Translations under genes and position numbers: made by a program | Assembly (NCBI GenBank): GCA_963787205.1 | Contig: CAWBCD010000006.1 | Location: 171,009 to 235,008 of the forward strand | Source: an uncultured bacterium | GTDB taxonomy: Bacteria > Bacteroidota > Rhodothermia > Balneolales > DATFMH01 | Length of the DNA stretch: 64,000 nucleotides | Direction of reading: 5' to 3' | Shown here: positions 21,564 through 51,743 of the stretch, piece after piece | How positions within the stretch are numbered: the stretch's first letter is position 1 | Layout: each line of letters opens with the position of its first letter | Notes under the pieces: model-generated | The model's input: the letters and a program-made list of their open reading frames with translations, nothing else | Database searches by the model: none | Told to the model about the DNA's origin: nothing

Positions 21564-21597
21564 GAATTAACGAACAATTTAAAACAACTGTCCTCTC

Positions 21598-22782
21598 TCA
21601 GCAGCTCCTGTTAAACTCCCCCAAACGGCCGGAGAACTTGCTTTTAGAAGCATAAATCTCTTTGATACGTCCAATCTGCTGCAGCCGATGTTCGGCCAGC
21701 TCATTCGAAGCGGCATAGGTCGGGATTCCCCGCTTCTCAGCATGGTCCAGGATGCCGATGATTACATCATAAATCCGGGAAGCTTGTTCATGAGCACGAT
21801 TCGAGTTATATCCTTCCAGCTCATTAGCTACGTTGATCAGTCCACCGGCATTGATCACATAATCCGGCGCGTACATGATGCCCCGGTCGATCAACATGGG
21901 ACCGTGTATTTCCTCGGTGTCAAGCTGATTATTGGCGCTGCCGGCGATAATGGAGGCTTTGAGCCGCGGAATCGTATCCGAATTAACGGTACCGCCTAAG
22001 GCACACGGACTGTAGATATCCACATCCAGATCGTAGATATCTTCCGAATCTACTCCAATTGCACCTGTCTTCTCCACGACCTTTTTCACCTTCTCAGGGA
22101 AAATATCACAGATGTAGATTTTAGCCCCTTCCTTGGCCAACATCTCTGCCAGGTAGGCACTCACATGTCCGGCCCCCTGGATCGATACTTTTTTACCATT
22201 CAACGAATCACTTCCGAACTGTTTGTGGGCACAGGCTTTCATTCCCATGTACACACCCAACGCCGTAACAGTCGAAGGATCACCACTTCCGCCGAGGGCT
22301 CTCGAAATACCTGTGACATATTTGGTTTCCATGCGAACCCATTCCATATCGGAAATCGATGTTCCTACATCTTCTGCCGTGATATAACGACCGGCCAATC
22401 CTTCAATGAAACGCCCGTAAGCCCTGAAGAGCGCTTCAGTCTTATCCTTTTGGGGATCACCGATGATCACTGCTTTTCCACCGCCAAGATTTAGTCCGGC
22501 GACAGCCGCCTTGTAGGTCATGCCGCGTGATAACCGAAGCGCATCGCGTAAAGCTTCCTGATCGGATTTATAGGTCCACATCCTGGTTCCTCCAAGAGCC
22601 GGTCCGAGCGTGGTATTGTGAATGGCAATGATCGCGCGCAGTCCCACTTTAGGTTCAGAACATATGATAACCTGTTCATGCTCTTTTTGTTCCAGTTGGT
22701 TAAAGATCGAAAAGCTCGTCTCTACTTCTTGTTGTGTTAATGTCTCTACTGTCATGTCTTTAATAATTTCGCGCAGAAACAA
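21598..22782 (-). CDS. Leucine (branched-chain amino acid) dehydrogenase
   Basis: AIIAIHNTTLGPALGGTRMW, GGGKAVIIGDP and GAGHV Rossmann motifs. An alternative start is at 22755. Confidence 0.88.
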   Translation of the reverse strand: MFLREIIKDMTVETLTQQEVETSFSIFNQLEQKEHEQVIICSEPKVGLRAIIAIHNTTLGPALGGTRMWTYKSDQEALRDALRLSRGMTYKAAVAGLNLGGGKAVIIGDPQKDKTEALFRAYGRFIEGLAGRYITAEDVGTSISDMEWVRMETKYVTGISRALGGSGDPSTVTALGVYMGMKACAHKQFGSDSLNGKKVSIQGAGHVSAYLAEMLAKEGAKIYICDIFPEKVKKVVEKTGAIGVDSEDIYDLDVDIYSPCALGGTVNSDTIPRLKASIIAGSANNQLDTEEIHGPMLIDRGIMYAPDYVINAGGLINVANELEGYNSNRAHEQASRIYDVIIGILDHAEKRGIPTYAASNELAEHRLQQIGRIKEIYASKSKFSGRLGEFNRSC

Positions 22783-22979
22783 AACACGTTGGTTTCATTC
22801 CTGCAATTTTTAAGTATCAGTTTATAAATAACGTAAATAACGCTTTTTGTGCGCCAAAAAAGCGCTTTTAACACCTGTATGTTACGGCATCTGAAAGCAA
22901 AATCAAACTGTATTTGAAGGATTAAATTCTGCTGTTTTTGTAAACCTGCCTCAGAATGGAAATTTTACGCCATTAACTA

Positions 22980-23845
22980 TCAGGGACGCTCAATTGGCAT
23001 CCGGACCATATTCCCCCACTCGGTCCATGAACCGTCATAATTCCGGACCTTGCGTAAGCCGAGCAGATATTTCAGGACAAACCAGGTATGACTTGAGCGC
23101 TCCCCAATACGGCAATAGGTAATGACTTCCTCTTCCGGGTCGATGCCCGTATCATTCAGATATATTTCCTCCAGTTCCTCCCGTGTTTTAAAGGTCCCGT
23201 CGTCATTGACTGCTTTCGACCATGGGATATTGTTTGCCCCCTGTATATGACCACCTCGTAACACTCCCTCTTGTGGATATTCGGCCATATGCAAAAGCTC
23301 TCCACTGAATTCCTGGGGTGAGCGTACATCAATTAGAGAAAGGCCATTCTCCAGATGATGCATCACATCAAGCAAAAACGCTCTTTCCTTCTTATCATCA
23401 CGTTTCGTCATTGGATAATCACCCGGTTCGAACTCGGGAATATCCTTTGTGAATTTCCGACCTTCTTCCTCCCATTTCTTGCGGCCTCCATCCATTATCT
23501 TCACATTTTCATGATTATACAGCCGAAAAACCCACAGAGCGTAACAAGCCCACCAATTGTTTTTGTCCCCGTAAAAGATCACTTCTGTATCTTGTGATAT
23601 TCCCTTACGCTCCATCAGCTTACGAAAAGCATGCTTATTTACATAATCGCGAATAACCGGGTCATTAAGTTCGGTATGCCAATCGATATTAATCGCATTT
23701 GGAATATGTCCGGTATCGTACAAGAAGCGGATCCTCATTGCTTTCAATAATTCGTATATTTTCATCCTCAGATGTAATCGGCAACCCAGTCTGTCGTAAC
23801 CAGTACTTCGGGATTTGCGTATTATTCAATCTTTTCTGTAGTCAT
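22980..23845 (-). pseudogene. sseA: Thiosulfate/3-mercaptopyruvate sulfurtransferase (two rhodanese domains) with a damaged 5' end
   Basis: Active site [13 protein letters not shown]. The expected N-terminus, [24 protein letters not shown] / [16 protein letters not shown] / YDTGHIP, is spread over three frames and has an in-frame TAA at 23822-23824. The intact ORF is only 22980..23765. Confidence 0.7.
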
Positions 23846-24096
23846 GGATTCAGCTCTTAATTTTTTGGGCGATTTGTGTTAATATGAGACAATCTACAAC
23901 GGATGCTCTTTGAAAACCCTCAGGTCGTACAAAAGAATTCCACCGAAGAAGTTCCTTCGGAACAATTTTTTATTGTTATGATTTTTTGCATGCCCGAACC
24001 TGGCAAGTCGATAAACTGGAGTGGATCGGGCTCTTGAACCGGCGAGTGTGATAGCCCCGGCTCTATTCAAATAAAAAAAAATAAACAGAAAAGAAA

Positions 24097-25847
24097 ATGA
24101 TGACGTACCGATGGGTAGTAACTCCTGTACAAGATGAAACAACCGTAAAACGATTACAAGAAGAGCTGGGCGTGCACCCAACGATTGCCCGCCTGCTTGC
24201 GTTACGCGGCATCAACACATTTGAACTGGCCCGATCTTACTTCAGGCCTAACATATCCAAACTTCATGATCCATACCTGATGAAGGACATGGAGAAGGCT
24301 GCACCGCGTCTTGCCGATGCTATCCGTCATGGTGAGAAGGTCGTTGTCTATGGGGATTATGATGTCGATGGGACAACTGCCACCTCGATCATGTACAATT
24401 TCCTAAAGAATTTTGGAAGAGATGTTCAGTATTATATTCCCCATCGTTTTAAGGAAGGATATGGAATCTCACTCGAGGGAGTCGATTTTGCGGTTAATAC
24501 ATCGGCAAAACTCATTTTATCGGTCGATTGCGGAATAACAGCTCATGAAGAGGCAGAATATGCCCGCGAACATGGGATAGACATGGTCATCTGTGATCAT
24601 CATACGGTGGGAGATACGATCCCAAATGCTTTTGCTGTGCTCGACCCCAAAAGACCGGATTGCCCGTATCCTTTTAAAGGATTGTCTGGCGCTGGAGTAG
24701 CTTTTAAACTCATCCAGGCTATCCTGCATGAATTGGGACTACCACCGGAAAAGGCACATCCGTATCTGGATCTGTTGGCTATTTCCATTGCTTCCGATAT
24801 CGTTCCGATTACCGGGGAAAACCGGATATTGATGCGGGAAGGTCTAAAAAAACTAAATGAAGACCCCAGACCAGGTATTCGCGCCCTCATGGATGTGATT
24901 AACCTGAAGCCGGGGACTATAACCACTACTCAGATCGTCTTTTCCATCGGCCCCAGAATCAATGCTGCTGGACGCATGGGTGATGCCGAACAGCAGTGGA
25001 ACTGATGATCGCCGATACCTATGAGGAATGCAATCGGCTATGCACATGAACTGGAAGGCATGAATCTGAAACGACGCCGCATCGACTCAGACACAATGGA
25101 CCGCGCTATGGCCATGCTGGATGAAACATTTCGATCCGGAAAAATATTCTTCACTGGTTCTTCACGATCCCGAGTGGCACCTGGGTGTTATCGGAATCGT
25201 TGCATCCCGATCTGGTCGACAAATATTGCCGGCCGAACAATCATGCTGAGTTCGGTGGATGGCCAGATCAAGGGTTCAGCCAGGAGCATAAAGGGTTTCA
25301 ATATTTATGAGGCACTAAAGGAATGTGAGGATCTGTTGGTTCAGTTCGGCGGGCACGAGTACGCTGCCGGATTGACACTGAATGAAGAAGATCTGGAGGC
25401 ATTCCGTGAACGCTTCAACAAACTTGCAGTCAGGAATCTCTCTGAAGATGACTTAGTCCCGGAACTTGAAATCGATAGTGAACTTGAACCTTTCACGATC
25501 TTGACAGCCGGTTCTGGAAAATATTGCGACAATTTGAACCCTATGGTCCGTTGAATTTACGACCGGTATTTGTCTCTAACGGATTGCGCGTGATTGGAAA
25601 CCCAACAATTGTCGGAAACGGACACCTTAAATTGCGTTTAACACAAAATGGATCATCGACATACGATGCGATTGGTTTCAACATGCACGAATACCTTCCG
25701 ATGGTCAGAAGTGCAAAAAATGGCTCACTCAGCATGGTTTATGTGCTGGAAGAAAATACATGGAACAACAAGACGACCATCCAACTCCGTTTGAAGGATA
25801 TTCGCAATGAAAATGGGAAAGATATGGCAATAGGGGAAGATAAATGA
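24097..25847 (+). pseudogene. recJ: Single-stranded-DNA exonuclease RecJ, split over three ORFs by about 6 frame changes between 24990 and 25495
   Basis: DHH motifs (VYGDYDVDGTT, DCG, ICDHH) and GPRINAAGRMGDA. Downstream conserved segments AVELMIAD / AIGYAHELE / LVLHDPEWHLGVIGIVASR / LVDKYCRP / TIMLSSVDGQIKGSARS / FWKILRQFEPYGPLNLRPVF lie in alternating frames. Confidence 0.75.
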
Positions 25848-26000
25848 GGAGTGAAATGCGTAAGTTTGCCCGGTTTACTATAAGACCATTGTTAAACCAC
25901 TACTCCCATTATTCCCTAATCCCCTTTCCATATTTCCCAATTTACGCCAGTACAACTTTGAATAAGTTTGAAAACCCATTATATTTGATGCCTCTCAAAT

Positions 26001-26073
<73 letters not shown>

Positions 26074-26300
26074 CTTTTTAGTAAGTCTATGTGAAGCAAT
26101 ACATAACAACTTCGCATAGACTTTTTTCGTTGTAGTTATTTTTCAACAACTTTTATTTGGTTACAAGAGAGTTACAAGGGAAATATTTTTACCCACTCGT
26201 TTTCTGCCCTTTTTTATGGTGTTCGATTCGTTCGATTTTTGTAAGGAATCTTCACTTTGCGTGACTTATAGATAGGTGTGAATAAAACAAGGGGTATAAA

Positions 26301-26468
26301 ATGAAAGAGAGATGTTTTATTGATATGGCCTTTAGATATGCTGCAGGAACATTGACGACTAATCAAATTGAGGAGTTGTGGGTTCGGGTGCTTATGAGGC
26401 CTGAGCTCCTCGACTTGCTGCTTATCATTGTTGGGGTTAAAATGTTATGTGACAAGGGGTGGAATTAA
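26301..26468 (+). CDS. Small hypothetical protein (55 aa), paralog of 27779..27934
   Basis: MKERCFIDMAFRYAAGTLTTNQIEELWVRVLMRPELLDLL... About half of its residues are shared with the second copy, which suggests protein-level conservation. Confidence 0.45.
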   Translation: MKERCFIDMAFRYAAGTLTTNQIEELWVRVLMRPELLDLLLIIVGVKMLCDKGWN

Positions 26469-26482
26469 ATGGAGTATGAACC

Positions 26483-26848
26483 ATGAAGGGATTGCCAATA
26501 GTTTTTATAGTTCTTCTTTTTAGTAGCGTTCTTTCTGTTTATGCACAATCTAATACTAATACCGATTCTGTTAGAATAAAGAAAATGGTTTTGCAAAGTG
26601 TGAACAAATTCAAAAAGGTCGGCTTTATAAAGAAGATTGATGGAGAAGACCAGAAAATATATTTAGATGATACTTTGTGGTATATGGAAAACGGTCCCCA
26701 AAAAGAGAACATAGTAAAAATATTAGCCTATTATATGGGCATTACTTTTTATCACGAAACACAGCCTATGCCATTTGGTGGGGTTTTTTTATACATTCAT
26801 CTGATTGTCTGTCAATGGCTTATACTATTTGTACGCTTTAATGAGTAG
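26483..26848 (+). CDS. Hypothetical secreted protein
   Basis: Signal peptide MKGLPIVFIVLLFSSVLSVYAQ. No recognisable domain. The C-terminal part after a T-run may be out of frame. Confidence 0.4.
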   Translation: MKGLPIVFIVLLFSSVLSVYAQSNTNTDSVRIKKMVLQSVNKFKKVGFIKKIDGEDQKIYLDDTLWYMENGPQKENIVKILAYYMGITFYHETQPMPFGGVFLYIHLIVCQWLILFVRFNE

Positions 26849-27357
26849 GCACAAACTGACAGATTAGGCAGGATACAATATTCGCTGACAGCGAACATTT
26901 GTAAAGTGAAACAGAGGGGGTACCCTTCCAAATTTTGATTGAAATCTGTGGATGGTAACAACCCCTCGCCTACGAGACCAAATTACGTAAAACAGGTACC
27001 ACACCATCTTATACGGCTTAATTGACAGATCGGCGCTCTCAGGGCAAATTTGAGGCATAGTGTAGGATAAATGTAGCTATCGGGATATGGCACTGGTTAT
27101 CAAATTACTTCCATCAATTGTATGGGATGAATAGGTGAAAAGAGCATATATAATCCAATATAATCAATGCGTTATGAAATAACAGCTCTAGCAAAGGTAC
27201 GTTGTGGAAGTACGGTGTAGTGATGGCAGGGGGTTCGTTGCCATCTTGTCAATGAGGGACGTATCGAAATTTTAGCGATTTATCGACACGTTATTCGCTT
27301 TTTACTGGAAGCAATTTTAATGTCCCAATCCGCCCGGTATCGCGTCTCTTTGTCTGA

Positions 27358-27621
27358 TTATTTCTTAAAAAGGGTCTTATTTTCATTATAAATGCCCAGG
27401 AACATTCTTTTTAACTTTTTATCAGATTCATTTCTGATATCGTCTCCTTTCATCCACACTAATGTGCTAAATGGATAAGATGCGACCGAAACTTTCCATT
27501 CATCAACATCTCGTTTAGCAGTTACCCTTACCGTGACTCCTGTGTTAATATTCCACGACTTATTAGAAAACTCGTCCTTATACTCTATTCGTGATTCGGG
27601 TTTATATAGATTTGATGGCAT
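27358..27621 (-). CDS. Hypothetical protein (87 aa)
   Basis: ORF only; no motif recognised. Confidence 0.35.
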   Translation of the reverse strand: MPSNLYKPESRIEYKDEFSNKSWNINTGVTVRVTAKRDVDEWKVSVASYPFSTLVWMKGDDIRNESDKKLKRMFLGIYNENKTLFKK

Positions 27622-27778
27622 GTATATATTTAGATGTTTTTTTATTCTGTTAGAAGGTAAGCATTTGCTTTACCGGATATTGTTTTTTCTGTAAGGTTTC
27701 CCATTCCCGCGTGTCAAATAAGCAAACTAATTAACAAAACAAGAGAGGTAACGTATAGAAGAAAGACGCTTTATTGAT

Positions 27779-27934
27779 ATGGCTTGCCGATTTGCTGCGG
27801 GGACACTCCCGGCAGATATGGTCGACACGTTGTGGGTCCAGGTGCTTAATAGGCCGGATCGTTTAAATTTAATATTTACACTCAAAGCGATTACAATGTA
27901 TAATAAGAGAGTTAGCAAAAGTGTAAAGCCATGA
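27779..27934 (+). CDS. Small hypothetical protein (51 aa), paralog of 26301..26468; the upstream ATG is replaced by ATA
   Basis: MACRFAAGTLPADMVDTLWVQVLNRPDRLNL... In-frame homology continues upstream (..EERRFID), but the start equivalent to copy 1 is lost. Confidence 0.4.
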   Translation: MACRFAAGTLPADMVDTLWVQVLNRPDRLNLIFTLKAITMYNKRVSKSVKP

Positions 27935-28046
27935 AGGCATTTTCTATTTATCGGGCATGAATCGGCATCTGGCTTGTGCTCAGGTTCTTAGCTAAATTGA
28001 CAACCGTTATTTGTATCTTAGCCCCTTATGGGCAGGGTCGTTAGGC
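27928..28046 (+). repeat. attC-like intergenic repeat, copy 1 (3' half conserved, ends in GTTAGGC)
   Basis: Shares ..CGGGCATGAA..GCATCTGGCTTGTGC..CTTAGCTAAATTGACAA..TATCTTAGCCCCTTATGGGCAGGGTCGTTAGGC with copies 2 and 3. It ends 18 nt before the next ATG. Confidence 0.6.
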
Positions 28047-28064
28047 TGCTTAAAATAAATTTTC

Positions 28065-28442
28065 ATGAATGCTAAACGCGTTATAGACTCTTTTAATGAC
28101 GAATTTAAAACACTCCAAAACAAATTTGATATAATTGAATTAACGGGAGCTACAATTAGGAATAATTCTGATTCCCGTATTATCAATCCGGGGGTCTATT
28201 TTTTTATCAAGGATGATGAAGTGTGGAGAGTGGGAAGAAGTCTGAAAAATGCCCGTTGGAGAGCTATCCAACATTTTCGAGATAATACTGCGGGGAAAAT
28301 GCAAAAATTAGATGGTGACGCAAATGCAACAATACTTCTTTTTACAATACCAGATCCTAAGAATAGACATTGGATTTTAGCTTTAGAGAAGTTCTTTGAG
28401 GACAAATTAAACCCTGATATTCCTCCTGGTCGAAATGGTTGA
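28065..28442 (+). CDS. Small GIY-YIG-like protein (tentative)
   Basis: 125 aa. GVYFFIKDDEVWRVGRS resembles the GIY...YIG element. AT-rich cassette bounded by the repeats. Confidence 0.45.
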   Translation: MNAKRVIDSFNDEFKTLQNKFDIIELTGATIRNNSDSRIINPGVYFFIKDDEVWRVGRSLKNARWRAIQHFRDNTAGKMQKLDGDANATILLFTIPDPKNRHWILALEKFFEDKLNPDIPPGRNG

Positions 28443-28450
28443 AGTCAGCA

Positions 28451-28577
28451 GCCTAACAAGGCATTAAGGGGACTAAGCCGGTCGGGCATGAAATCCGCAT
28501 CTGGCTTGTGCATAAGGTCTTAGCTAAATTGACAAGCGTTGCTCGTATCTTAGCCCCTCACATAGGGATCGTTTAAG
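28451..28577 (+). repeat. attC-like intergenic repeat, copy 2 (the most complete copy)
   Basis: Starts with GCCTAAC (RYYYAAC) 9 nt after the stop of the preceding gene. AAGGGGACTAAG (28466-28477) can pair with CTTAGCCCCT (28549-28558), leaving one bulged A. Ends GTTTAAG. Confidence 0.6.
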
Positions 28578-28837
28578 GGTTATGAACAGGGTTCTTAACA
28601 TAACTTTATTTCGAAAGTACGAAAGGAGTAAAATATTATAAAAGAGCAAAAGAAAAACGATATAAGTTTTGTCCCGGTTCTTGCCAACTTGTATGGGAAG
28701 ATATTGGGAAACAAAAAGCGTAAACCTGTGGTCAAAGGCAACAGAGGGCATTTCGATGAGATTGCTTTTGCCAATACTAAGATGAAAACCGGATCAGGTA
28801 CGTCAACACACCCTGCGGCGTGTCTGGAGCCAGAGCC

Positions 28838-29410
28838 ATGACCCAGTTCGATTACATCGTGGTGCTCGTCTCGGTTATTGTTGGGCTCGGCGTCGTTCAC
28901 CTGCTTGCCGGGGTAGCTCGATTCCTTACCCGTCGAGACGAGTGGAAGCCATACTGGGTGCATCTGCTTTGGACGTGGAATGTCTTCAACTACCTGGTCT
29001 TCTTCTGGTGGTTTGTCTACCGTTGGAAAACGGTCCCGCAATGGTCACTCGGGCTCTTCCTTTTCGTACTCCTGTACTCGGTCGTGATATACCTGCTTTG
29101 CGCGGTCCTTTACCCGGAGAAAGAAGACCGCAGAGCCTTTCGAGAAATATACTTTGAGAACAAGAGCGTCTTCTTCGGTTTGTGGATCATCCTTATAGTT
29201 TTTGATTTCGTTGACACCCATCTCAAGGAGCATTACGGACTCAGCGGCTTCGGTGTATTTCAGATTGTGAACTATTTGGTGATCGTTGTTGGCTCGGCAA
29301 TCGCCGCACGTTCAAAGAGTCACCGGGTACACGCAATATGGGCCATTCTATTCTTCGTGATCATTTCCACGTTCGAGTATATCAACTTCCGCATTCTCAG
29401 GACCAACTAG
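28838..29410 (+). CDS. Membrane protein of unknown function (about 6 TM)
   Basis: MTQFDYIVVLVSVIVGLGVVHLL... Hydrophobic throughout and GC-richer than the flanking cassettes. Confidence 0.55.
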   Translation: MTQFDYIVVLVSVIVGLGVVHLLAGVARFLTRRDEWKPYWVHLLWTWNVFNYLVFFWWFVYRWKTVPQWSLGLFLFVLLYSVVIYLLCAVLYPEKEDRRAFREIYFENKSVFFGLWIILIVFDFVDTHLKEHYGLSGFGVFQIVNYLVIVVGSAIAARSKSHRVHAIWAILFFVIISTFEYINFRILRTN

Positions 29411-29417
29411 ACTTCGA

Positions 29418-29515
29418 TCGGCTGTATGTCAGAGCTGATCACTTGTGTTCACAGTTTTAACTACATTGACAATCGTTGCTCGTATCTTAGCCCCTTATGC
29501 GCAGGGTCGTTAGGC
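29418..29515 (+). repeat. attC-like intergenic repeat, copy 3 (ends in GTTAGGC)
   Basis: ..CACTTGTGTTCACAGTTTTAACTACATTGACAATCGTTGCTCGTATCTTAGCCCCTTATGCGCAGGGTCGTTAGGC. It ends 19 nt before the next ATG. Confidence 0.6.
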
Positions 29516-29534
29516 AAACATCAAATATTGAGAG

Positions 29535-30158
29535 ATGACCGAAAAATTATCAAAATATAAATTTAGAAGAATTGCAACAGAATCGTTTAAAAATGGATTG
29601 AGATTGCATTTTGATTCAATCAAACTTTTCAAAACTGATTCATATCCATCTTCTTTAATGTTGGCAATTATCGCTTTAGAGGAATTTTCAAAATCTAACT
29701 GGGTTGAACATTACTATTGGTCGTCGATTACTGGTTCCTTTCCTGATGTTGAATTTGAACAAGAATGGTTAAAATTATTATATAAGCATCCCAAAAAACA
29801 GAAAGCATTTTTGGGCTGGGGAGATGCCTTTGAATATTCACCAAGGTTTATCAAATCAATTGAGAATAATGAATTGGAGATACTAAAACAAAAAGCCACG
29901 TACGTAGGTTTAAATAGAATAAAAGGCAAGGTAGATGTAAAGAGTAGAATATCTATACCCCAAAAAACTAATCAATCAGAACCAAAGAAAATAATATCCC
30001 TTAACAATAATTATCTATTGGAAATTTGCGAGAGAAAAAAAATTCAAGAAATTTATTTTGATATTGAAGAGAAAGATGATTTGATAACAGATGAATTGTA
30101 TGAAAAATTAAAAAAATGGAAATATAAAAGTGGGTTGCGATCTAATAAATTTTATTAA
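29535..30158 (+). CDS. AbiV-like (HEPN-type) abortive-infection protein, tentative
   Basis: 207 aa. N-terminal ESFKNGLRLHFDSIKLFKTDSYPSSLMLAIIALEEFSKS matches the AbiV-family pattern as I recall it (..Na..L..Da..L...gsy..A..LailAiEElgK). Confidence 0.55.
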   Translation: MTEKLSKYKFRRIATESFKNGLRLHFDSIKLFKTDSYPSSLMLAIIALEEFSKSNWVEHYYWSSITGSFPDVEFEQEWLKLLYKHPKKQKAFLGWGDAFEYSPRFIKSIENNELEILKQKATYVGLNRIKGKVDVKSRISIPQKTNQSEPKKIISLNNNYLLEICERKKIQEIYFDIEEKDDLITDELYEKLKKWKYKSGLRSNKFY

Positions 30159-30547
30159 GATTGGAAACAAATATTAAATAAATATGGAAAATAAATTTGA
30201 TTGTACAACTTCCAAACAAAGGTCTGTACGGTGAAATTGACAACTTGGTCATTAAGTTATTGGTACAGAATATTTAATTAGTGCCATTGTTTAGTGAAAA
30301 CAGTTATTTATGAAATGCTATATAAAGGAGTTGAATTGAAATCAAAAGATCATCAAAAACTGGTTACAGCTATCATGTCATGGAATGATGGTCATTCCGG
30401 CCCAAACTGACCCCCAAAATCCGGTGAACCTGCCCCTGGGTCAGTATCTGCCATTCCGGCATAGTGACCCCCTCTCCGGATAAAAAAAGGTTTTGGTTGA
30501 TAGCTTGGTGAGTAATCGATCATCTACTCACTAATCTTGATTTCTCA

Positions 30548-32121
30548 ATGGCAGCTAAACCAAAACCTATGTCACAAATTAAGCAAATATTACGCCTGCA
30601 CCAGCAGGGCAAATCCATTAAGTTTATGGTCCGGAATCTGTCGGTCTCCCGCAATACGGTCCCGAAAGCTTTCGGGATCTGGCTTTGGGGAAGGCCAGTG
30701 GACGCGGTATCGAGGAACTGCTGAGTCTGGAAGAGACCGAACTGGAACAGATTCTGAGCCCGGCAGGCGGAGCCGAACAAACCGACCGCTATGGGGACCT
30801 GGCCGGTCAATATGATTATTTCTGCAAGGAACTCGCCCGCACCGGCGTCACTCGTTGGCTCTTGTGGAGTGAGTACCGGCAGAGTCATCCGGACGGGTAC
30901 AGCTACAGCCAGTTTTGCTGGCATCTGGCTCGGATGGGAGAGGCTCGTAAGACTACCATGGGAAACCTGCCTCATCCGGCGGGCGAGCAAACCTACATCG
31001 ATTTTGCCGGCAAGTATGGCGAGTATGTGGATCGGGATAGCGGAGAGATCCGACGGGTACCCCTGCTGGTGATGACCCTGGGTTATAGTCAATATAGTTA
31101 TGTGGAAGCTCTGCCTTCCGGGAACAGCGAAGATCTTATCGAAGGATTGAGCCGGGGGTTCATCTGGTTTGGCGGGGTCACCCAAGCGCTGATCCCCGAC
31201 AACATGAAGACCGCCGTGGTCAAGGCCGACCGCTATGAGCCGGGGATCAACAAGGTGTTGGAAGACCTGGCTAACCACTATCAGACGGTCATCCTGCCGG
31301 CCCGTCCAGGCCACCCCAGGGACAAGCCCCTGGTTGAGATGAGCGTGCGGGAGGTCTACCGTCAGATAGTGGCTCCTCTTCGAAACCGGACCTTCTTCAG
31401 CCTGAACGAACTCAACGGGGCGATTTGCCAGCAGTTGCAGGCTTGGGGGGAGCGGGCTTTTCAGGGTCGGGAAGAGACCCGTCGCGGGCGATTTGAGGCC
31501 GAACGGCAGGCCCTGGGTCCGCTGCCCACCGAACCCTTCCTGATCAAAAAACAGGTGAGCCTGACCGTGCGAAACAACTCGCACATCCAGATCCGGGAAG
31601 ACAAGCACTACTACAGCGTGCCCCACACGTACATCAGGGGGAAGGTAAAGATCATCTATACCAGCCGGCTGGTTCAGATCTTCTGCCGGGGCAGCCTGAT
31701 CGCCTCTCATCCCCGCGATCGCACGCCCTGGGGTTACACAACGGTTAAAGACCATCTACCTTCCCAGCATCAGTACTGGAGCGAGCGGGGAGCGGACTGG
31801 TACCGGCAGCGCGGGCGTGGGATCTCGGCGGAAGTGGGTCAGCTAGTCGAGCGGATCCTGACCTGCCGGACCTACCCCGAACAAGCCTTTCGCAGTCTGG
31901 ACGGGGTGCTCGGACTCCACCGCAAGGTGGGGACCGAGCAACTCACCGAAGCCGCCCGCATCGCTCTGAGCCTGGATCAGTGTAATTATAGCTTCCTGGC
32001 CCGGCTGATCAAAAACGGAATGGCAGGCGGGGAGGCTGCTCCGCCTGGTCCACCAGCCAGACTCCCTGACCACGAGAATATCCGTGGCAAAGAATATTTC
32101 CAACAATCCCTTAACCTCTAA
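30548..32121 (+). CDS. istA: IS21 transposase IstA (apparent frame break near 30660-30690)
   Basis: The N-terminal HTH MSQIKQILRLHQQGKSIKFMVRNLSVSRNTV is in one frame. The body (ORF 30685..32121), with the DDE region (..YIDFAG..LVMTLGYSQYSYVEA..IPDNMKTAV..), is in another. Confidence 0.8.
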
Positions 32122-32132
32122 TCAACCCTTCT

Positions 32133-32868
32133 ATGAATACCTCTAAGAACGAAGAACTCATGCATGAACTCCGACTCCACGGCATGCTGGTCCCGAAGGC
32201 ATTCGGGACAGGCTCTCTTGGAAACCCGCTCTCACACGAACCTGTCTCTGCCGGAAGGCCTGCAGCATCTGCTCCAGGCCGAATGGCTCCAGCGGGGCCA
32301 GCGTCGGGTGAGCAGGCTACGCAAAGCCGCCGGCTTCCGCTATCAGGCCAGCCTGGAAGAACTCGCATGGACTCCGGACCGCGGACTTGACAAAAACACC
32401 ATTGCTCTGCTTGCCGACGGACAATATATCCAGGGCGGACAGGCGGTCTTGATTACCGGTCCGACCGGCAGCGGAAAGAGTTTTCTGGCCTCGGCTCTGG
32501 GTCAGCAGGCCTGTGAGTTGGGTTACCGGACCGGTTATTTTAACATGCAAAAAATCCTCCATGCCTTCCTTCTGGCTCGGGCTGACGGAACGATTCTGAA
32601 GCTGCTGGACAAGATTGCCCGCACGCACCTGCTCATCCTCGATGATTTTGGACTCCGGCCTCTTGATGCCCAACAGCGGCTGGATCTGTTAGATATGGTG
32701 GAAGACCGTCACGGAAAGATGGCTACGATCATTGTCAGTCAGCTTCCCCTGGCCAACTGGTATGATGTGATTGGAGAGGGCACGATTGCCGATGCCATTC
32801 TGGACCGGCTTATTCACACCTCCTACCGCATTGAATTACACGGAGAAAGTATGAGAAAAAAACAGTAA
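32133..32868 (+). CDS. istB: IS21 helper ATPase IstB (apparent frame break near 32190-32215)
   Basis: Walker A ITGPTGSGKSFLA and Walker B LLILDDFG. The IstB-like N-terminus MNTSKNEELMHELRLHGM is in the frame starting at 32133; the body is in the frame of ORF 32164..32868. Confidence 0.8.
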
Positions 32869-33018
32869 TATTGTCATAGCCAAAAAGGAACCCAACCAAG
32901 CCCGATGGGGGGTCACTTTCACCGGAATGAGGGGTCAGCTTCTCCGGAATAACCAAATGATGAGTCTGTGGATGTGACTCGAGGTAAGCAGAATTTGGTA
33001 AGAACGTATGTTGCTGTT

Positions 33019-33645
33019 TCAGGAAGTGACTGAACGTCTGAAATTTTTCACGAGCATCTTTTGAGCCTCATCCGAACCAAGTCGTGCGGCTCTCTTTAAA
33101 TCATCTTCTGCATAATTGAGATTTCCGTACTTCCAGTAAGCATAACCTCTTTGGAATAAAGCATCCTTGTTATTAGGATTCAAACGCAATGACAGATTGT
33201 AATCCTGAATAGCGTCGATATTTTTTCGAAATATGTATAGGTTAATCATACCCCGAATGAGGTAAGTTTCCGAATCGTTTCCCGCCAGTCTGATCGCAAG
33301 GTTAATATCAGTAAGAGCTCTTTTCCCATTGCCCAGGTTCATTTCCACCAATGCCTTTCTTTTTATGGCTTCGACATCACGTGGATGAGAACTGGTCAGT
33401 TCATCATAATAAAACAAGGCTGATTTTAAATTCCCCCCTGTCTCGCTTACATAACCCATAACTAATAAAGCAATCGGATTATCAGGCTCTTTTTCTAAAA
33501 TATCAGATGCAATTTGATTGGCGTGCTTATAGTCCTCAATCTGCAGATAAAATTTACAAAGCTCGTTCTCGAAAATATTTATAGGCGCTCTTTTATTATC
33601 AGAATTCATTTTTATATCCCAAATATCATCATTAGTAATAGACAT
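33019..33645 (-). CDS. TPR-repeat protein
   Basis: Repeating 34-aa helical pattern (A..Y.....P.N..AL...G..Y...G....A...Y..AL.L.P.N). Confidence 0.75.
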   Translation of the reverse strand: MSITNDDIWDIKMNSDNKRAPINIFENELCKFYLQIEDYKHANQIASDILEKEPDNPIALLVMGYVSETGGNLKSALFYYDELTSSHPRDVEAIKRKALVEMNLGNGKRALTDINLAIRLAGNDSETYLIRGMINLYIFRKNIDAIQDYNLSLRLNPNNKDALFQRGYAYWKYGNLNYAEDDLKRAARLGSDEAQKMLVKNFRRSVTS

Positions 33646-34572
33646 TGTCTATTTACTAACCTAACGTTTTCAATAGCACCATAATTCCAATCTTTATTAT
33701 AGATACAGAGTAAAAAAGATTCTTTTATTTTACTTATATAATAATATTTAAACCATTAAAAGAGTTTTAATACCTTAATTTATTGATCTTAATTCTTTCA
33801 ATACTTATTTAAAATATATTCAGGTTAAATGACTGTTTAGCAGCAGAATATATTATCAAAAAGCCGATCATTCGTGTTCCATTTATTATTTGGATAGTTT
33901 TCTACATTGATCATATTTTAACGTGAGTTCAACAAAAGAGCACCTCACACAAAACGCACAACCTCAATTTCATTTCGAGCGAAGTGAAATCCCGACACAT
34001 CTGGATCGGAATGACAGTGGGGGTTCGTAGTTGGTTTTGCTTAATTCATCTGTTATTATTCCACGCAACCGATAAGATTTCACTTCTGAAATTCCAACCA
34101 ATCCAATCGCACTGACTTAGCATATAAAGGATATAACAACGATTTTGTAACCACAGACTTGTCGGGCTGAAGCTTAATCGGTCATCACACCTTGAAGAAT
34201 CAATTTGAAATCACAACTGAAGCGTATAATTATAGCAAGGATACGCCGGCTACCATTATCATCATTACCTGTAATCTCTCCGGACATCTCCTCAAGCCAG
34301 GTTTCAATGCTGTTCTTGAAAAGCTTGAAAAATAATCAGTGGAAGACCATTTGTATGCAATATACTATTGTTAACATATCACTTACGGATACTCTAAATT
34401 TAATTTTCATTTATTTCTGGAAAATTGTTTTAAAATCTGAAAACTTCAGTAATTATATGCATATTTACTTTACTTTTGAGACGAAAAGTCGATCATCATC
34501 AGAGATAATGGCTTTTTCTGATACCGGCAAAGACAATAAAATTTGTCCTTATTCAGTAACCTGTTACAGACT

Positions 34573-34947
34573 ATGAGTGATCCCAAAGGAATAATGATCG
34601 TTGAAGACGAGATGCTGCTTTCCCTCGTCTACGATAACTATATTAAGAAACTAGGCTGGAAAACGTTAGGAAAATTTGTTGACGGTAACTCCGCCGTCCA
34701 GGGTGTAAAGGACCTGAACCCTGATCTTATCCTGATGGATATTTTTCTCAAGGGCGATATGGATGGCATCGATACAATGAAGCAGATCAGAGAGTTTTCT
34801 GATGCACCTGTAATTTATATTACGGGTAATTCAGATCTGCATCATGCCGAGCGCGCAAAAGACACTGGATATGTTGATTATCTGATCAAACCTATCACAC
34901 TCGATGATCTTAAGACAGCCGTGGTGAAGCTGGAGCAGGAATTGTAA
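34573..34947 (+). CDS. Stand-alone response-regulator receiver (CheY-like)
   Basis: IMIVEDE, DLILMDIFL (phospho-acceptor Asp) and the T/K positions (YITGNS, LIKP). ATG at 34573 preferred over 34543. Confidence 0.85.
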   Translation: MSDPKGIMIVEDEMLLSLVYDNYIKKLGWKTLGKFVDGNSAVQGVKDLNPDLILMDIFLKGDMDGIDTMKQIREFSDAPVIYITGNSDLHHAERAKDTGYVDYLIKPITLDDLKTAVVKLEQEL

Positions 34948-34969
34948 TCCTGACTGATTATTTCAATAA

Positions 34970-35008
34970 CAAAGGCTGATACCGTTTCTGGCACCAGCCT
35001 TTGTTTTA
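34970..35008. terminator. Bidirectional terminator between convergent genes
   Basis: Stem CAAAGGCTG / CAGCCTTTG, flanked by A/T runs on both sides. Confidence 0.7.
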
Positions 35009-35019
35009 AAATGCCATCA

Positions 35020-36546
35020 TTAGCGTATCAGCAGCATTTTCCGTATCTGGCTGAATTCATCTGTTTGTAACCGATAGAAGTAAATTCCACTTGCCAGCTG
35101 CGCAGCATTAAAACGGACGAGATAGGAACCCGCGCCCTGTGTTTGGTTGACTAGCATGCCAACCTGACGTCCGGTCAAGTCGTAAACAGTTAATCGAACC
35201 ATCCCTGTTTTTGCCAATTTATACTGGATGACGGTACTCGGATTAAACGGATTGGGATAGTTTTGGAGCAATTCAAACCTGTCGGGTATGCTGGCGGTCT
35301 GAGTTTGTTCAATAGGAGTGGGCACTTCGGTTGGTCTGTTTTGTGTAAATGTATTTGTCTGGGACAGGAAACTTGACCAGCTTACCCCCAACCAATAATC
35401 AGTTGTCATTCTTACCATATTTCCATTGCTGTCGAATGTTGAACGAATACGAAAATTGTTCATCCAATCCGTACCGGTCCACATCTGGGTTAAATATTCG
35501 GTCACCTGGTTGCTGGCATTATATGTATAAACTATTCGATACTGATCGATCCAATTCGCCCCGTCCCAGGCTTGCTCAACCATCGTGGCAAAATCCAGTG
35601 TTGTCGACGACGAGTGGTAGGTAAACAGGGTCTTTGTAGTATCAATCCAGTTACTCCCCCTGTATATCTGTTCAATCATTTGGTTTGGCCTGTTATACGA
35701 ATCATAGCTGTAGATATCTTTTGTACTGTCGGCCCATTGACCGTTTGTCCAAACCTGATACAGTTCGGTACTGATATTATTGTTATCAATGGTATAAACA
35801 TATTGATCCACGTTTACCCAGTTGCTTCCATCCCAGTTTTGGTACAGCTCGAGTGTTGGCTGCATAGCTTGTCCGTAACTGTATGAAGTCCGATCGTAAT
35901 TCACCCAGTCGCTCGTGCCCCAGTCCTGGTTGATAATCTCGGTCTCTCTGTTCTGACCGTCATAGTTCGTAATCATTTTATAACTGTTGACCCAGCCGTT
36001 ATTCATCCAAAACTGAGAATAATGCTCCGTCTCCAGATTAGATGCGTTGTAGCTATACAGGATCTGGTTCAGGTTATCAAATTGTCCGCTCGTTTTATTC
36101 CAGCTGGTCGTCAGGTCCTTGGTAACATTATTATTGGTGTCGTACGTGTACTCGTCCAGCAACGAATTTTCGAATTTACCGGTAGTATCATTGTATATCT
36201 TATACAGGGCCTTCGTGCTGTCGTCATTTGTGTTGTAGGCGTAAAAAATTTGGCTGACAGAGATCTTGGATCCCGGGAATAGCGGAAACAGAGTATCCTG
36301 CGACGATTCAAGATACCAGGTTGCGTTGATTGTCCGAAGCTGATCCTGACCGTTAATACTATTCACCAAATTGCGCAGTCCATTCGCGGGTATAGATTTA
36401 GCTTTGGGCACATGAATTTTCGATGAAATGCGTTTCATGGGAGATAGTTTACCAGAAAACTGCTGAGACTGTGCATTTACTGTTCCAAATGCAAGTAAAA
36501 TCACAATGATCGACGTTGTAAGCCTGATCTTATTAGCAAGGTACAT
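35020..36546 (-). CDS. Secreted repeat protein with a T9SS C-terminal sorting domain
   Basis: Signal peptide. Many W.N..(K/R)..Y.YD..N-type repeats. C-terminus QNYPNPFNPSTVIQY..GIYFYRLQTDEFSQIRKMLLIR. Confidence 0.8.
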   Translation of the reverse strand: MYLANKIRLTTSIIVILLAFGTVNAQSQQFSGKLSPMKRISSKIHVPKAKSIPANGLRNLVNSINGQDQLRTINATWYLESSQDTLFPLFPGSKISVSQIFYAYNTNDDSTKALYKIYNDTTGKFENSLLDEYTYDTNNNVTKDLTTSWNKTSGQFDNLNQILYSYNASNLETEHYSQFWMNNGWVNSYKMITNYDGQNRETEIINQDWGTSDWVNYDRTSYSYGQAMQPTLELYQNWDGSNWVNVDQYVYTIDNNNISTELYQVWTNGQWADSTKDIYSYDSYNRPNQMIEQIYRGSNWIDTTKTLFTYHSSSTTLDFATMVEQAWDGANWIDQYRIVYTYNASNQVTEYLTQMWTGTDWMNNFRIRSTFDSNGNMVRMTTDYWLGVSWSSFLSQTNTFTQNRPTEVPTPIEQTQTASIPDRFELLQNYPNPFNPSTVIQYKLAKTGMVRLTVYDLTGRQVGMLVNQTQGAGSYLVRFNAAQLASGIYFYRLQTDEFSQIRKMLLIR

Positions 36547-50951: not shown

Positions 50952-51743
50952 TTATCCCTTATAAAAGGCCTCTGCTATTCGCTGAAACTGGTACGGTTGA
51001 TCCAGAAAAGCATAGTGACCGGCCTCCTTGATCGTTACTAAGGCGCTGTTGCGCAGACCTCCGTTCATACGTTCTGCCTGATATAACGGAGTGGTGTCAT
51101 CGTTCGTACCCCATATGAGCAATATCTCATGATTGATTTCAGGCAGGCAGGGTTCCAGATATTCGCTAACAACCTTGACAAACGTTTCTCTCATTACCCC
51201 CTGAAGCTGCTGGTAGTCGGAAGAGCCCAGGCTTTTCCATAAAGGCGTCTTACGCAAGAGATCAATTTGCCGGGTCTTCGCCGGTTCAGGCAGAATCGAA
51301 AATGGCATTTTCAGCAGTTTGGCAAAGTATTTTTTGAAATAGAATTTGGCACTACGACGCGGTTTCATACCTGCCCCACCCGTTATAAGAACCTTGTCGA
51401 AGCGATCCGCAATCTGTTGCCGGGCACACAATTTGAGCATGATTCGTCCGCCGAGAGAGTGGGCCAGGATGTCGACCGTCTGAAAACCAAGCTCATCAAT
51501 CAGCGCAAGAACGCAGTCCGCATAATCGTCAACAGACCATGATTGGAATGGCTCTTCAGACTCGCCAAAACCCGGCAAATCCGGTACAATACATTTTCGC
51601 ACCGGACTCATCGATTGTGCCAAGGGCAACATAAGCTTACCGCTTGCTCCCCAGCCATGTAGAACAATAAGTGGTTTTCCTTCACCAAGTACGTAATAGT
51701 GAAGTTTCCGGTCTCTGTACGTCGTGCTATATTCTGTCGCCAT
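50952..51743 (-). CDS. Alpha/beta-fold hydrolase
   Basis: HGWGASG oxyanion region, nucleophile elbow AHSLGG, C-terminal GHYAF. Confidence 0.8.
   Translation of the reverse strand: MATEYSTTYRDRKLHYYVLGEGKPLIVLHGWGASGKLMLPLAQSMSPVRKCIVPDLPGFGESEEPFQSWSVDDYADCVLALIDELGFQTVDILAHSLGGRIMLKLCARQQIADRFDKVLITGGAGMKPRRSAKFYFKKYFAKLLKMPFSILPEPAKTRQIDLLRKTPLWKSLGSSDYQQLQGVMRETFVKVVSEYLEPCLPEINHEILLIWGTNDDTTPLYQAERMNGGLRNSALVTIKEAGHYAFLDQPYQFQRIAEAFYKG

Follow-up and report, generated by a model that had tools for sequence, protein, structure and literature searches.

The window analysed here is a stretch of 64 kb from an uncultured bacterium (contig CAWBCD010000006.1, positions 171,009 to 235,008). Downstream of its tRNA-Phe gene lie three co-oriented repeats (27951-28046, 28447-28578 and 29426-29515) which alternate with small genes and are found nowhere else in the 64 kb. 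A previous reading of the letters alone, here called the sequence-only reading, had taken them for attC-like repeats that separate unrelated gene cassettes in an integron array without an integrase. The features of the locus are listed in Table 1. Pairwise blastn comparison shows 87% identity between 27951-28026 and 28482-28558 (E 1e-16), 84% between 27973-28046 and 29442-29515 (E 2e-14) and 79% between 28505-28573 and 29442-29511 (E 6e-9). The 22-mer and 17-mer cores of the repeat occur at these three sites only, with 0-0.19 occurrences expected in the window.

Table 1. Features of the repeat array and its surroundings, in window coordinates (ORF, open reading frame; aa, amino acids).
Feature	Position	Strand	Basis and remarks
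tRNA-Phe(GAA)	26001-26074	+	ARAGORN; Rfam 74.9 bits; left edge of the strain-specific island
Variable island, 8.3 kb	26076-34420		no counterpart in the relative L003 (blastn of the window against L003)
Candidate sigma-70-like promoter	27875-27904	+	near-consensus TTTACA-18-TATAAT; 11/12 in consensus scan; reads into the array
attC copy 1	27951-28046	+	variable centre, L' CTTAGCCCCTT (28017-28027) and R' GTTAGGC (28040-28046) kept
Cassette A	28041-28571	+	ORF 28065-28442, 125 aa; flanked by 11-bp inverted R-box sequences
attC copy 2	28447-28578	+	R'' GCCTAAC (28451-28457), L'' (28466-28477), L' (28549-28558); R' degenerate
Orphan attC 3' end, 24-nt stub GTTATGAACAGGGTTCTTAAC	28580-28603	+	~15/20 bases as in the consensus 3' end (by eye)
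Cassette B	28597-29509	+	leader with decayed upstream small ORF, then ORF 28838-29410, 190 aa
attC copy 3	29380-29515	+	R''-like TATCAAC (29380-29386), L' (29486-29496), R' GTTAGGC (29509-29515)
Cassette C	29510-30262	+	ORF 29535-30158, AbiV-family HEPN abortive-infection (anti-phage) protein
Possible internally deleted attC remnant of cassette C	30215-30262	+	AAGGTCT..AAATTGACAAC..GGTCATTAAG
IS21-family insertion sequence	30389-32955	+	rve and Mu-transposase C-terminal domains on IstA (Pfam); just past the array

As long as an integron is functional, the attC bottom strand forms an imperfect hairpin, in which R'' pairs with R' and L'' with L' and extrahelical bases remain. IntI, a tyrosine recombinase, binds to this structure and cleaves inside the conserved AAC/GTT triplet, and cassettes are excised as circles and then re-inserted. 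In the window, these elements are unequally preserved. GTTAGGC is found as the R' core in copies 1 and 3, located 18 and 19 nt ahead of the ATGs at 28065 and 29535, while neither copy has a good R''. The R''/L'' arm of copy 1 is degenerate (27908-27950) and its 5' part merges into a duplicated segment of 210 nt; the 5' arm of copy 3 has diverged and overlaps the final codons of cassette B. Both arms are kept in copy 2 only, a caveat that had been raised from the beginning. Here GCCTAAC starts 9 nt after the preceding stop codon, and AAGGGGACTAAG lies opposite CTTAGCCCCT with one bulged A, forming the inner stem with a single extra base that the sequence-only reading had proposed. The 3' end of copy 2 is damaged (CACATAGGGATCGTTTAAGG), its R' end reading CGTTTAAGG at 28570-28578.

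The stretch of copy 2 that ends in GCCTAAC complements the opening of its own cassette over 11/11 bp (28040-28050 GTTAGGCTGCT versus 28447-28457 AGCAGCCTAAC), which is longer than previously noted. A weak fourth copy had been suggested at about 30222-30280. In favour of it, the 11-mer AAATTGACAAC matches exactly at 27994 in copy 1 and at 30234 and nowhere else in the window (0.08 expected). Against it, the region is neither matched by the hidden Markov model (HMM) of the repeat family introduced below nor does it yield a hairpin on folding. From its sequence, an internally deleted attC remnant of cassette C is plausible but not established.

The three cassettes differ strongly in G+C (guanine plus cytosine) content, with ~0.37 for A, ~0.50 for B and ~0.30 for C, and in predicted function, both as claimed before. 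The ORF of cassette A has no match in Pfam, NCBIfam or PADLOC. The product of cassette B is, judged by its hydrophobic sequence, a predicted multi-pass membrane protein; an exact look-up with both possible starts found it not on record. The ORF of cassette C is recognised by Pfam HEPN_AbiV (5.5e-16), TIGR04498 (9.6e-14) and PADLOC AbiV (1.2e-6), and the homologue search returned none closer than 70% identity.

An initial search pattern, TTGACAA-N10-GTATCTTAGCCCC, was too strict and had no match in genome, metagenome or viral contigs. A pattern redesigned from the copies beside cassette B homologues retrieved 23 contigs of the Joint Genome Institute (JGI). With a 3-copy and then a 34-copy HMM at least 57 copies of the family were collected, most of them on the 23 JGI contigs and others on contigs of the European Nucleotide Archive. 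The family alignment comprises 49 distinct copies, and 34 full-length copies entered a second alignment. The copies form co-oriented arrays with a spacing of 450-2400 nt, e.g. 7 copies in 6.2 kb on contig L109 (L-numbers denote retrieved contigs). The consensus of ~128 nt reads nnn(C/A)TAAC-AAGCGCATT-AAGGGGACTAAG-[~70 nt]-CTTAGCCCCTT-ATGCGCAGGGTC-GTTAnnn and carries one extrahelical base in its layout. Most members possess the 5' arm which in the window is left only in copy 2.

The window repeats belong to this ~128-nt attC family, which resembles the Vibrio cholerae repeats (VCRs). The family HMM applied to the window was built from copies outside of it and identifies copy 2 at 28452-28563 (model 2-114, E 4e-34), copy 1 at 27951-28044 (model 33-127, E 2e-25) and copy 3 at 29426-29513 (model 39-127, E 6e-22). 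Copy 2 reaches up to 93% identity to JGI family members. A blastn search of the family consensus against plasmids gave no match. A weak match of the repeat profile at 51167-51214 (E 0.024-0.13) is located within an alpha/beta-hydrolase ORF and was judged to be due to chance.

Structure is best seen in the intact members. When its own R' is restored, a consensus-type member from L109 forms a hairpin over its full length (-29.7 kcal/mol; z -4.35 for the top and -5.25 for the bottom strand). The folded molecule has a long R stem and the L stems, with an asymmetric internal loop, and its R''/L'' arm bears single-base bulges; when the bottom strand is folded, the extrahelical bases bulge out on the '' arm. 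Over the alignment 92.6% of the stem cells pair, compared to 31-44% if the partners are slid by 1-3 columns. Helix 1 (TAAC...GTTA) pairs in ~91% of the family cells. The inner L''/L' stem, AAGGGG-A-CTAAG with CTTAG-CCCCTT, pairs in 93% and shows the compensatory changes UA>CG (3 sequences), CG>UA (2 sequences) and CG>AU. Double-sided changes are observed at 4 pairs in 7 cells, a level reached by 0/500 shuffles. The arms of the repeat agree with the VCRd oligo (PMC2095811 Table 3) at 23/27 and 26/31 bases, and at most 1/2000 shuffles scores as high.

Complementarity of the R boxes across a cassette is a classical hallmark of integrons, as R' is completed by the cassette's own 5' end after the G|TT crossover and a cassette extends from TT... 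over its ORF and attC to ...G. For 14 pairs of adjacent copies, the 10 nt that follow GTT were set against the 10 nt that precede AAC in the next copy, the latter as reverse complement. True neighbours match at 7.1/10 positions and mismatched pairs at 4.0/10. A score of at least 8 is reached by 8/14 true neighbours versus 1.1% of the controls, with GTTAGCCAAAGTG / CACTTTGGCTAAC and GTTAGCCGTATTT / AAATACGGCTAAC as examples.

The same junction is visible where cassettes recur in other contigs. A total of 47 cassette B homologues was found. On L089/L090 and L091 (88-89% aa identity), they are flanked by copies of the window repeat. Homology at the nucleotide level extends over 28580-29511 for L091 (84%) and 28781-29513 for L089 (88%). 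Since it spans both the ORF and the downstream repeat in L091 and L089, the two travel together. The homology ends at ..CGTT (L091) and ..CGTTAG (L089) of copy 3, and that of cassette A to contig L083 begins with CGTTAGG. Cassette junctions thus fall at GTT. What follows cassette B differs from contig to contig, namely AbiV in the window, an ORF of 111 aa plus attC on L091 and a kinase gene on L089; this is the cassette variability that the sequence-only reading had proposed to look for. A distant homologue of B (74%) resides on L092 in an array with a different, GC-rich attC-like repeat. The 5' side of cassette B is informative as well. The stub at 28580-28603 has a counterpart on L091 which ends the attC preceding cassette B there, and it is at 28580 that the homology of window and L091 starts. 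The stub marks the true 5' edge of cassette B together with a deleted neighbour.

With family features, VCR-like arms and GTT junctions, our data support the sequence-only reading. We consider it highly probable that we are dealing with a short integron cassette array that is decaying and has no integrase, i.e. a CALIN (an attC site cluster without an integron integrase). In keeping with a CALIN, three family attC copies lie within 1.6 kb and no integrase was found in the window, which extends beyond the array by ~28 kb on its left and ~34 kb on its right side. In each unit, a gene without a promoter of its own would be followed by attC as recombination site. The three cassettes with the 125-aa protein, the 190-aa membrane protein and AbiV would have been captured by an integron and now seem frozen in an island adjacent to tRNA-Phe. 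That the array is frozen is suggested by its damage, i.e. the lost 5' arm of copy 1, the diverged 5' arm of copy 3, the damaged 3' end of copy 2, the stub, and an attC of cassette C of which next to nothing is left. The genes, otherwise promoterless, are probably transcribed from 27875-27904, whose promoter-like sequence makes it the candidate driver. The locus does not represent a complete integron: intI was not found in the window, and the promoter-like site is not accompanied by a recognisable attI.

Several findings weigh against an integron origin. No IntI-like gene was detected in the window or in 34 related contigs (tblastn with an approximate IntI1 query, nothing below E 0.26), nor did Pfam scans of candidate ORFs in the window and the fetched contigs reveal an integron integrase. 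We infer the recombinase for this reason; that no integrase is visible in the window had been stated as a caveat before. Folding of each copy, proposed earlier as a check, did not produce a stable hairpin, and on both strands no copy in the window folds better than shuffled sequence (z -0.6 to +2.2): copy 1 gives no hairpin (z +0.3 and +1.0), copy 2 folds weakly even with R' restored (z -0.4 to -0.6) and copy 3 does not fold (z +1.2 and +2.2). The 5' arm of cassette B's attC is poor in each of the three contexts, although the neighbours differ. Covariation support is modest because the family is highly conserved. Moreover, cassette A has one close homologue (89% aa identity), which is present on six Logan contigs in another context. 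On L083 the DNA homology spans 28039-28457 exactly; it sets in with CGTTAGG (end of copy 1) and runs to GCCTAAC (start of copy 2). It is lost right after this inverse core such that the whole attC was not carried along, and beyond GCCTAAC the family HMM finds no attC of the family on L083. Such a break is not predicted by the canonical integron pathway. From the window alone the attC reading looked weak, as there were no hairpins (z -0.5 to +1.2 for the first folding of the three copies) and a complementary 5' half only in copy 2; the family data overturned this view.

Dispersed elements of the MITE or REP type (miniature inverted-repeat transposable element, repetitive extragenic palindrome) had already been raised in the sequence-only reading as the counter-possibility. 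The repeat would then be an element with terminal inverted repeats (GCCTAAC..AAGGGGACTAAG / CTTAGCCCCTT..GTTAGGC) that by chance inserted three times between genes. Copy 2 and the consensus indeed have imperfect terminal inverted repeats of ~27 nt and a fixed length of ~128 nt, and the breaks of short-read contigs fall within the copies, as is the case with repeats present many times. However, there is no further copy in the 64 kb, all 57 copies found are placed in co-oriented arrays directly after ORFs, and target-site duplications do not flank them. The outer bases are cassette-specific and complementary across the cassette, not across the repeat, which a transposing MITE would not yield, and the arms match VCR. 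We thus regard an insertion of this kind as very improbable. Just as improbable is a promoter or 5' untranslated regulatory element of the downstream gene that was duplicated with its regulatory region. The location of copies 1 and 3, which end shortly ahead of start codons, would fit, as would the fact that the 3' half is the conserved part in the window and that a separate upstream duplication of 210 nt exists (26281-26493 versus 27733-27941). But the repeat travels with the upstream gene, as seen for cassette B and copy 3, and the break is at CGTT. Furthermore, a sigma-70-like spacing is missing within the repeat, Rfam at gathering and permissive thresholds matched the tRNA only and left the repeats unmatched, and the consensus hairpin spans the entire unit.

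The position of the array, 1.9 kb downstream of tRNA-Phe and in a strain-specific island, together with the lack of IntI in the window and related contigs is in line with yet another origin, namely attachment sites left by tandem integration of integrase-less islets at tRNA-Phe through a tyrosine recombinase that acts in trans and is not of the integron type. Between the repeats and the 3' end of the tRNA there is no similarity though, a tRNA is carried by 0/17 of the scanned array-bearing and related contigs, and architecture as well as arm sequences are those of attC and VCR. This makes integration at the tRNA hardly more credible than the two explanations above, and the decaying cassette array remains our preferred reading.

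Apart from these explanations, some candidate features of the repeat were rejected. A sigma-70 promoter TTGACA..TATCTT inside the repeat has a spacer of only 11 nt. A peptide encoded by the repeat was dismissed since the frame has stops in copies 1 and 2 and conservation at the nucleotide level explains the similarity. An att repeat derived from the tRNA was discarded due to missing similarity to tRNA.

The closest known relatives of the repeats are the VCRs, which serve the superintegron of V. cholerae as attC sites. They are alike in length (about 123-128 nt) and in high conservation within arrays. They also have in common the order R''-spacer-L''...L'-spacer-R', an extrahelical T on the bottom-strand L'' arm and nearly identical arms, TAACAA(A/G)CGC.T.AAG.GGGACT and AGCCCCTTA.GCG..GTTA. 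In contrast, the central ~70 nt are unrelated, the spacer of the 3' arm is longer here, with AGGGTC as an asymmetric loop of 6 nt, and pairing of GCGCAT with ATGCGC is possible in our family where VCR has an unpaired spacer. The host is Balneolales-like (Bacteroidota/Chlorobi, FCB group) and not a gammaproteobacterium, and for the family described here no cognate integrase was identified in the window and the fetched contigs.

The authors of IntegronFinder describe CALINs as having at least two attC sites and no intI nearby, with fewer cassettes than complete integrons, and read them as degraded integrons (PMC9024848). The window array agrees with this in having at least two attC sites with cassettes, no intI nearby and fewer cassettes than a complete integron; its sites are more decayed than the category requires, only one having both arms, and the assignment made here follows the definition. 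Integrons are rare in the Bacteroidetes/Chlorobi group and are known from Salinibacter ruber M1, Chlorobi and Ignavibacteriae (PMC9024848). Those belong to the same broad group as the host but are complete with intI. Our literature search found no paper that pairs integrons with Balneol*.

Hence a Balneolales-like host and a ~128-nt VCR-like attC family of at least 57 copies are added to the few integron systems of Bacteroidota/Chlorobi. The array shows decay in place with lost arms, an attC cut to a stub and an insertion sequence (IS) next door, while the cargo including the AbiV anti-phage gene is retained. The system is a gene-capture system of a known kind, its mildly notable trait being the closeness of the attC arms to Vibrio VCRs; how integrons are understood to work is unchanged by the locus. 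In terms of method, the correct reading would have been discarded on the basis of folding and inspecting the window, and the intact family was revealed only by following the cassette genes into other metagenomes.

A more far-reaching idea, which we put forward tentatively and hold to be rather doubtful, is that Balneolales-like bacteria living in saline soils and sediments have a lineage of large, sedentary integrons on their chromosomes, with attC arms almost the same as those of Vibrio VCRs. The break on L083 would in addition represent a non-canonical event, e.g. top-strand or secondary-site recombination, that moved the ORF without its attC. If such a lineage exists, it would imply either a deep cross-phylum conservation of the IntI-attC recognition code or a transfer of the platform across phyla.

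The tRNA-Phe gene is the sole tRNA of the window (ARAGORN). RecJ, encoded to its left, shows 92-93% identity to metagenome-assembled genomes of Balneolales, the syntenic loci of which were retrieved via RecJ; based on this retrieval the host is placed near them. The closest relative, L003 (84% nucleotide identity), is syntenic by blastn at 21597-26076 and 34421-36424 and not in the interval between. As synteny stops at 26076 and resumes at 34421 with only 1.16 kb in between on L003, the array is located in a strain-specific island of 8.3 kb. The 1.16 kb of L003 harbour the gene of an SGNH/GDSL-type hydrolase, named by eye from its sequence. Neither the repeat nor the island genes are present at the syntenic loci of the relatives (L003-L082). 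Besides the array the island contains an IS21 element and a tetratricopeptide repeat (TPR) gene.

The IS21 element is inserted 230 nt past the AbiV gene. It is bounded by a target duplication of 5 bp (AATGA) and has multiple terminal repeats (CATTCCGG..TGACCCCC). Its istA is split (30548-30724 / 30685-32121) and followed by istB (32164-32868), which was named by position and sequence. The split of istA resembles that of recJ (24097-25847), which consists of three overlapping or adjacent ORFs (24097-25005, 25021-25554 and 25524-25847) and is a single gene in the relatives. Split recJ may be either a pseudogene or the result of indel errors typical of long-read assemblies. Although RecJ and IstA look frameshifted, the array sequence is not an assembly artefact, because 26047-28490 and 29492-30467 are 100% identical to short-read contigs (run ERR11523667). 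One of the short-read contigs, L001, stops 78 nt into IS21.

The duplicated segment of 210 nt upstream of the array has 63% identity between its units (blastn, E 3e-13). Each unit contains a small ORF (55 and 51 aa; M.(F/C)R(Y/F)AAGTL...LWV.VL.RP), and the two ORFs are paralogous and without family match. The first unit precedes a secreted protein of 121 aa, the second borders on attC copy 1 at its degenerate 5' arm. Both may be older, fully decayed cassettes.

Cassette B has at 28612-28841 a leader that is conserved (CGAAAG.ACGAAAGGAGTAAAA.ATTAT), together with a small upstream ORF; the latter overlaps the start of the main ORF (ATGA). The small ORF is intact on L089 (34 aa, ATG), while its start reads ATA in the window and on L091. 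On L083 (1-10733, Logan SRR28998479) the homologue of cassette A heads a defence island with type I restriction-modification genes hsdM and hsdS, an AAA_21 ATPase, GmrSD and two Fic genes.

Numerous ORFs in the JGI arrays resemble transposases of the IS3, IS110 and IS630 type, as judged by eye from the N-terminal sequence. Such ORFs lie within the arrays of L099 (577-5547), L109 (1660-2802), L114 (153-1049) and L103 (1152-2308). On L099 two arrays face away from each other on either side of an IS3-like ORF, which suggests an IS-mediated inversion. Finally, L092 (1-13875, JGI 3300039631) is a GC-rich array of 13.9 kb with ~20 small co-oriented genes, among them a DUF433/DUF5615 toxin-antitoxin pair, a methyltransferase, GrpB, Arr-ms, HTH/AHSA1 pairs and the 74% homologue of cassette B. 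Its repeat is different (~90 nt, ACG.C.CATAACA.G.CGGCTGCCGC...), and L092 looks like the integron array of another host with one cassette in common.

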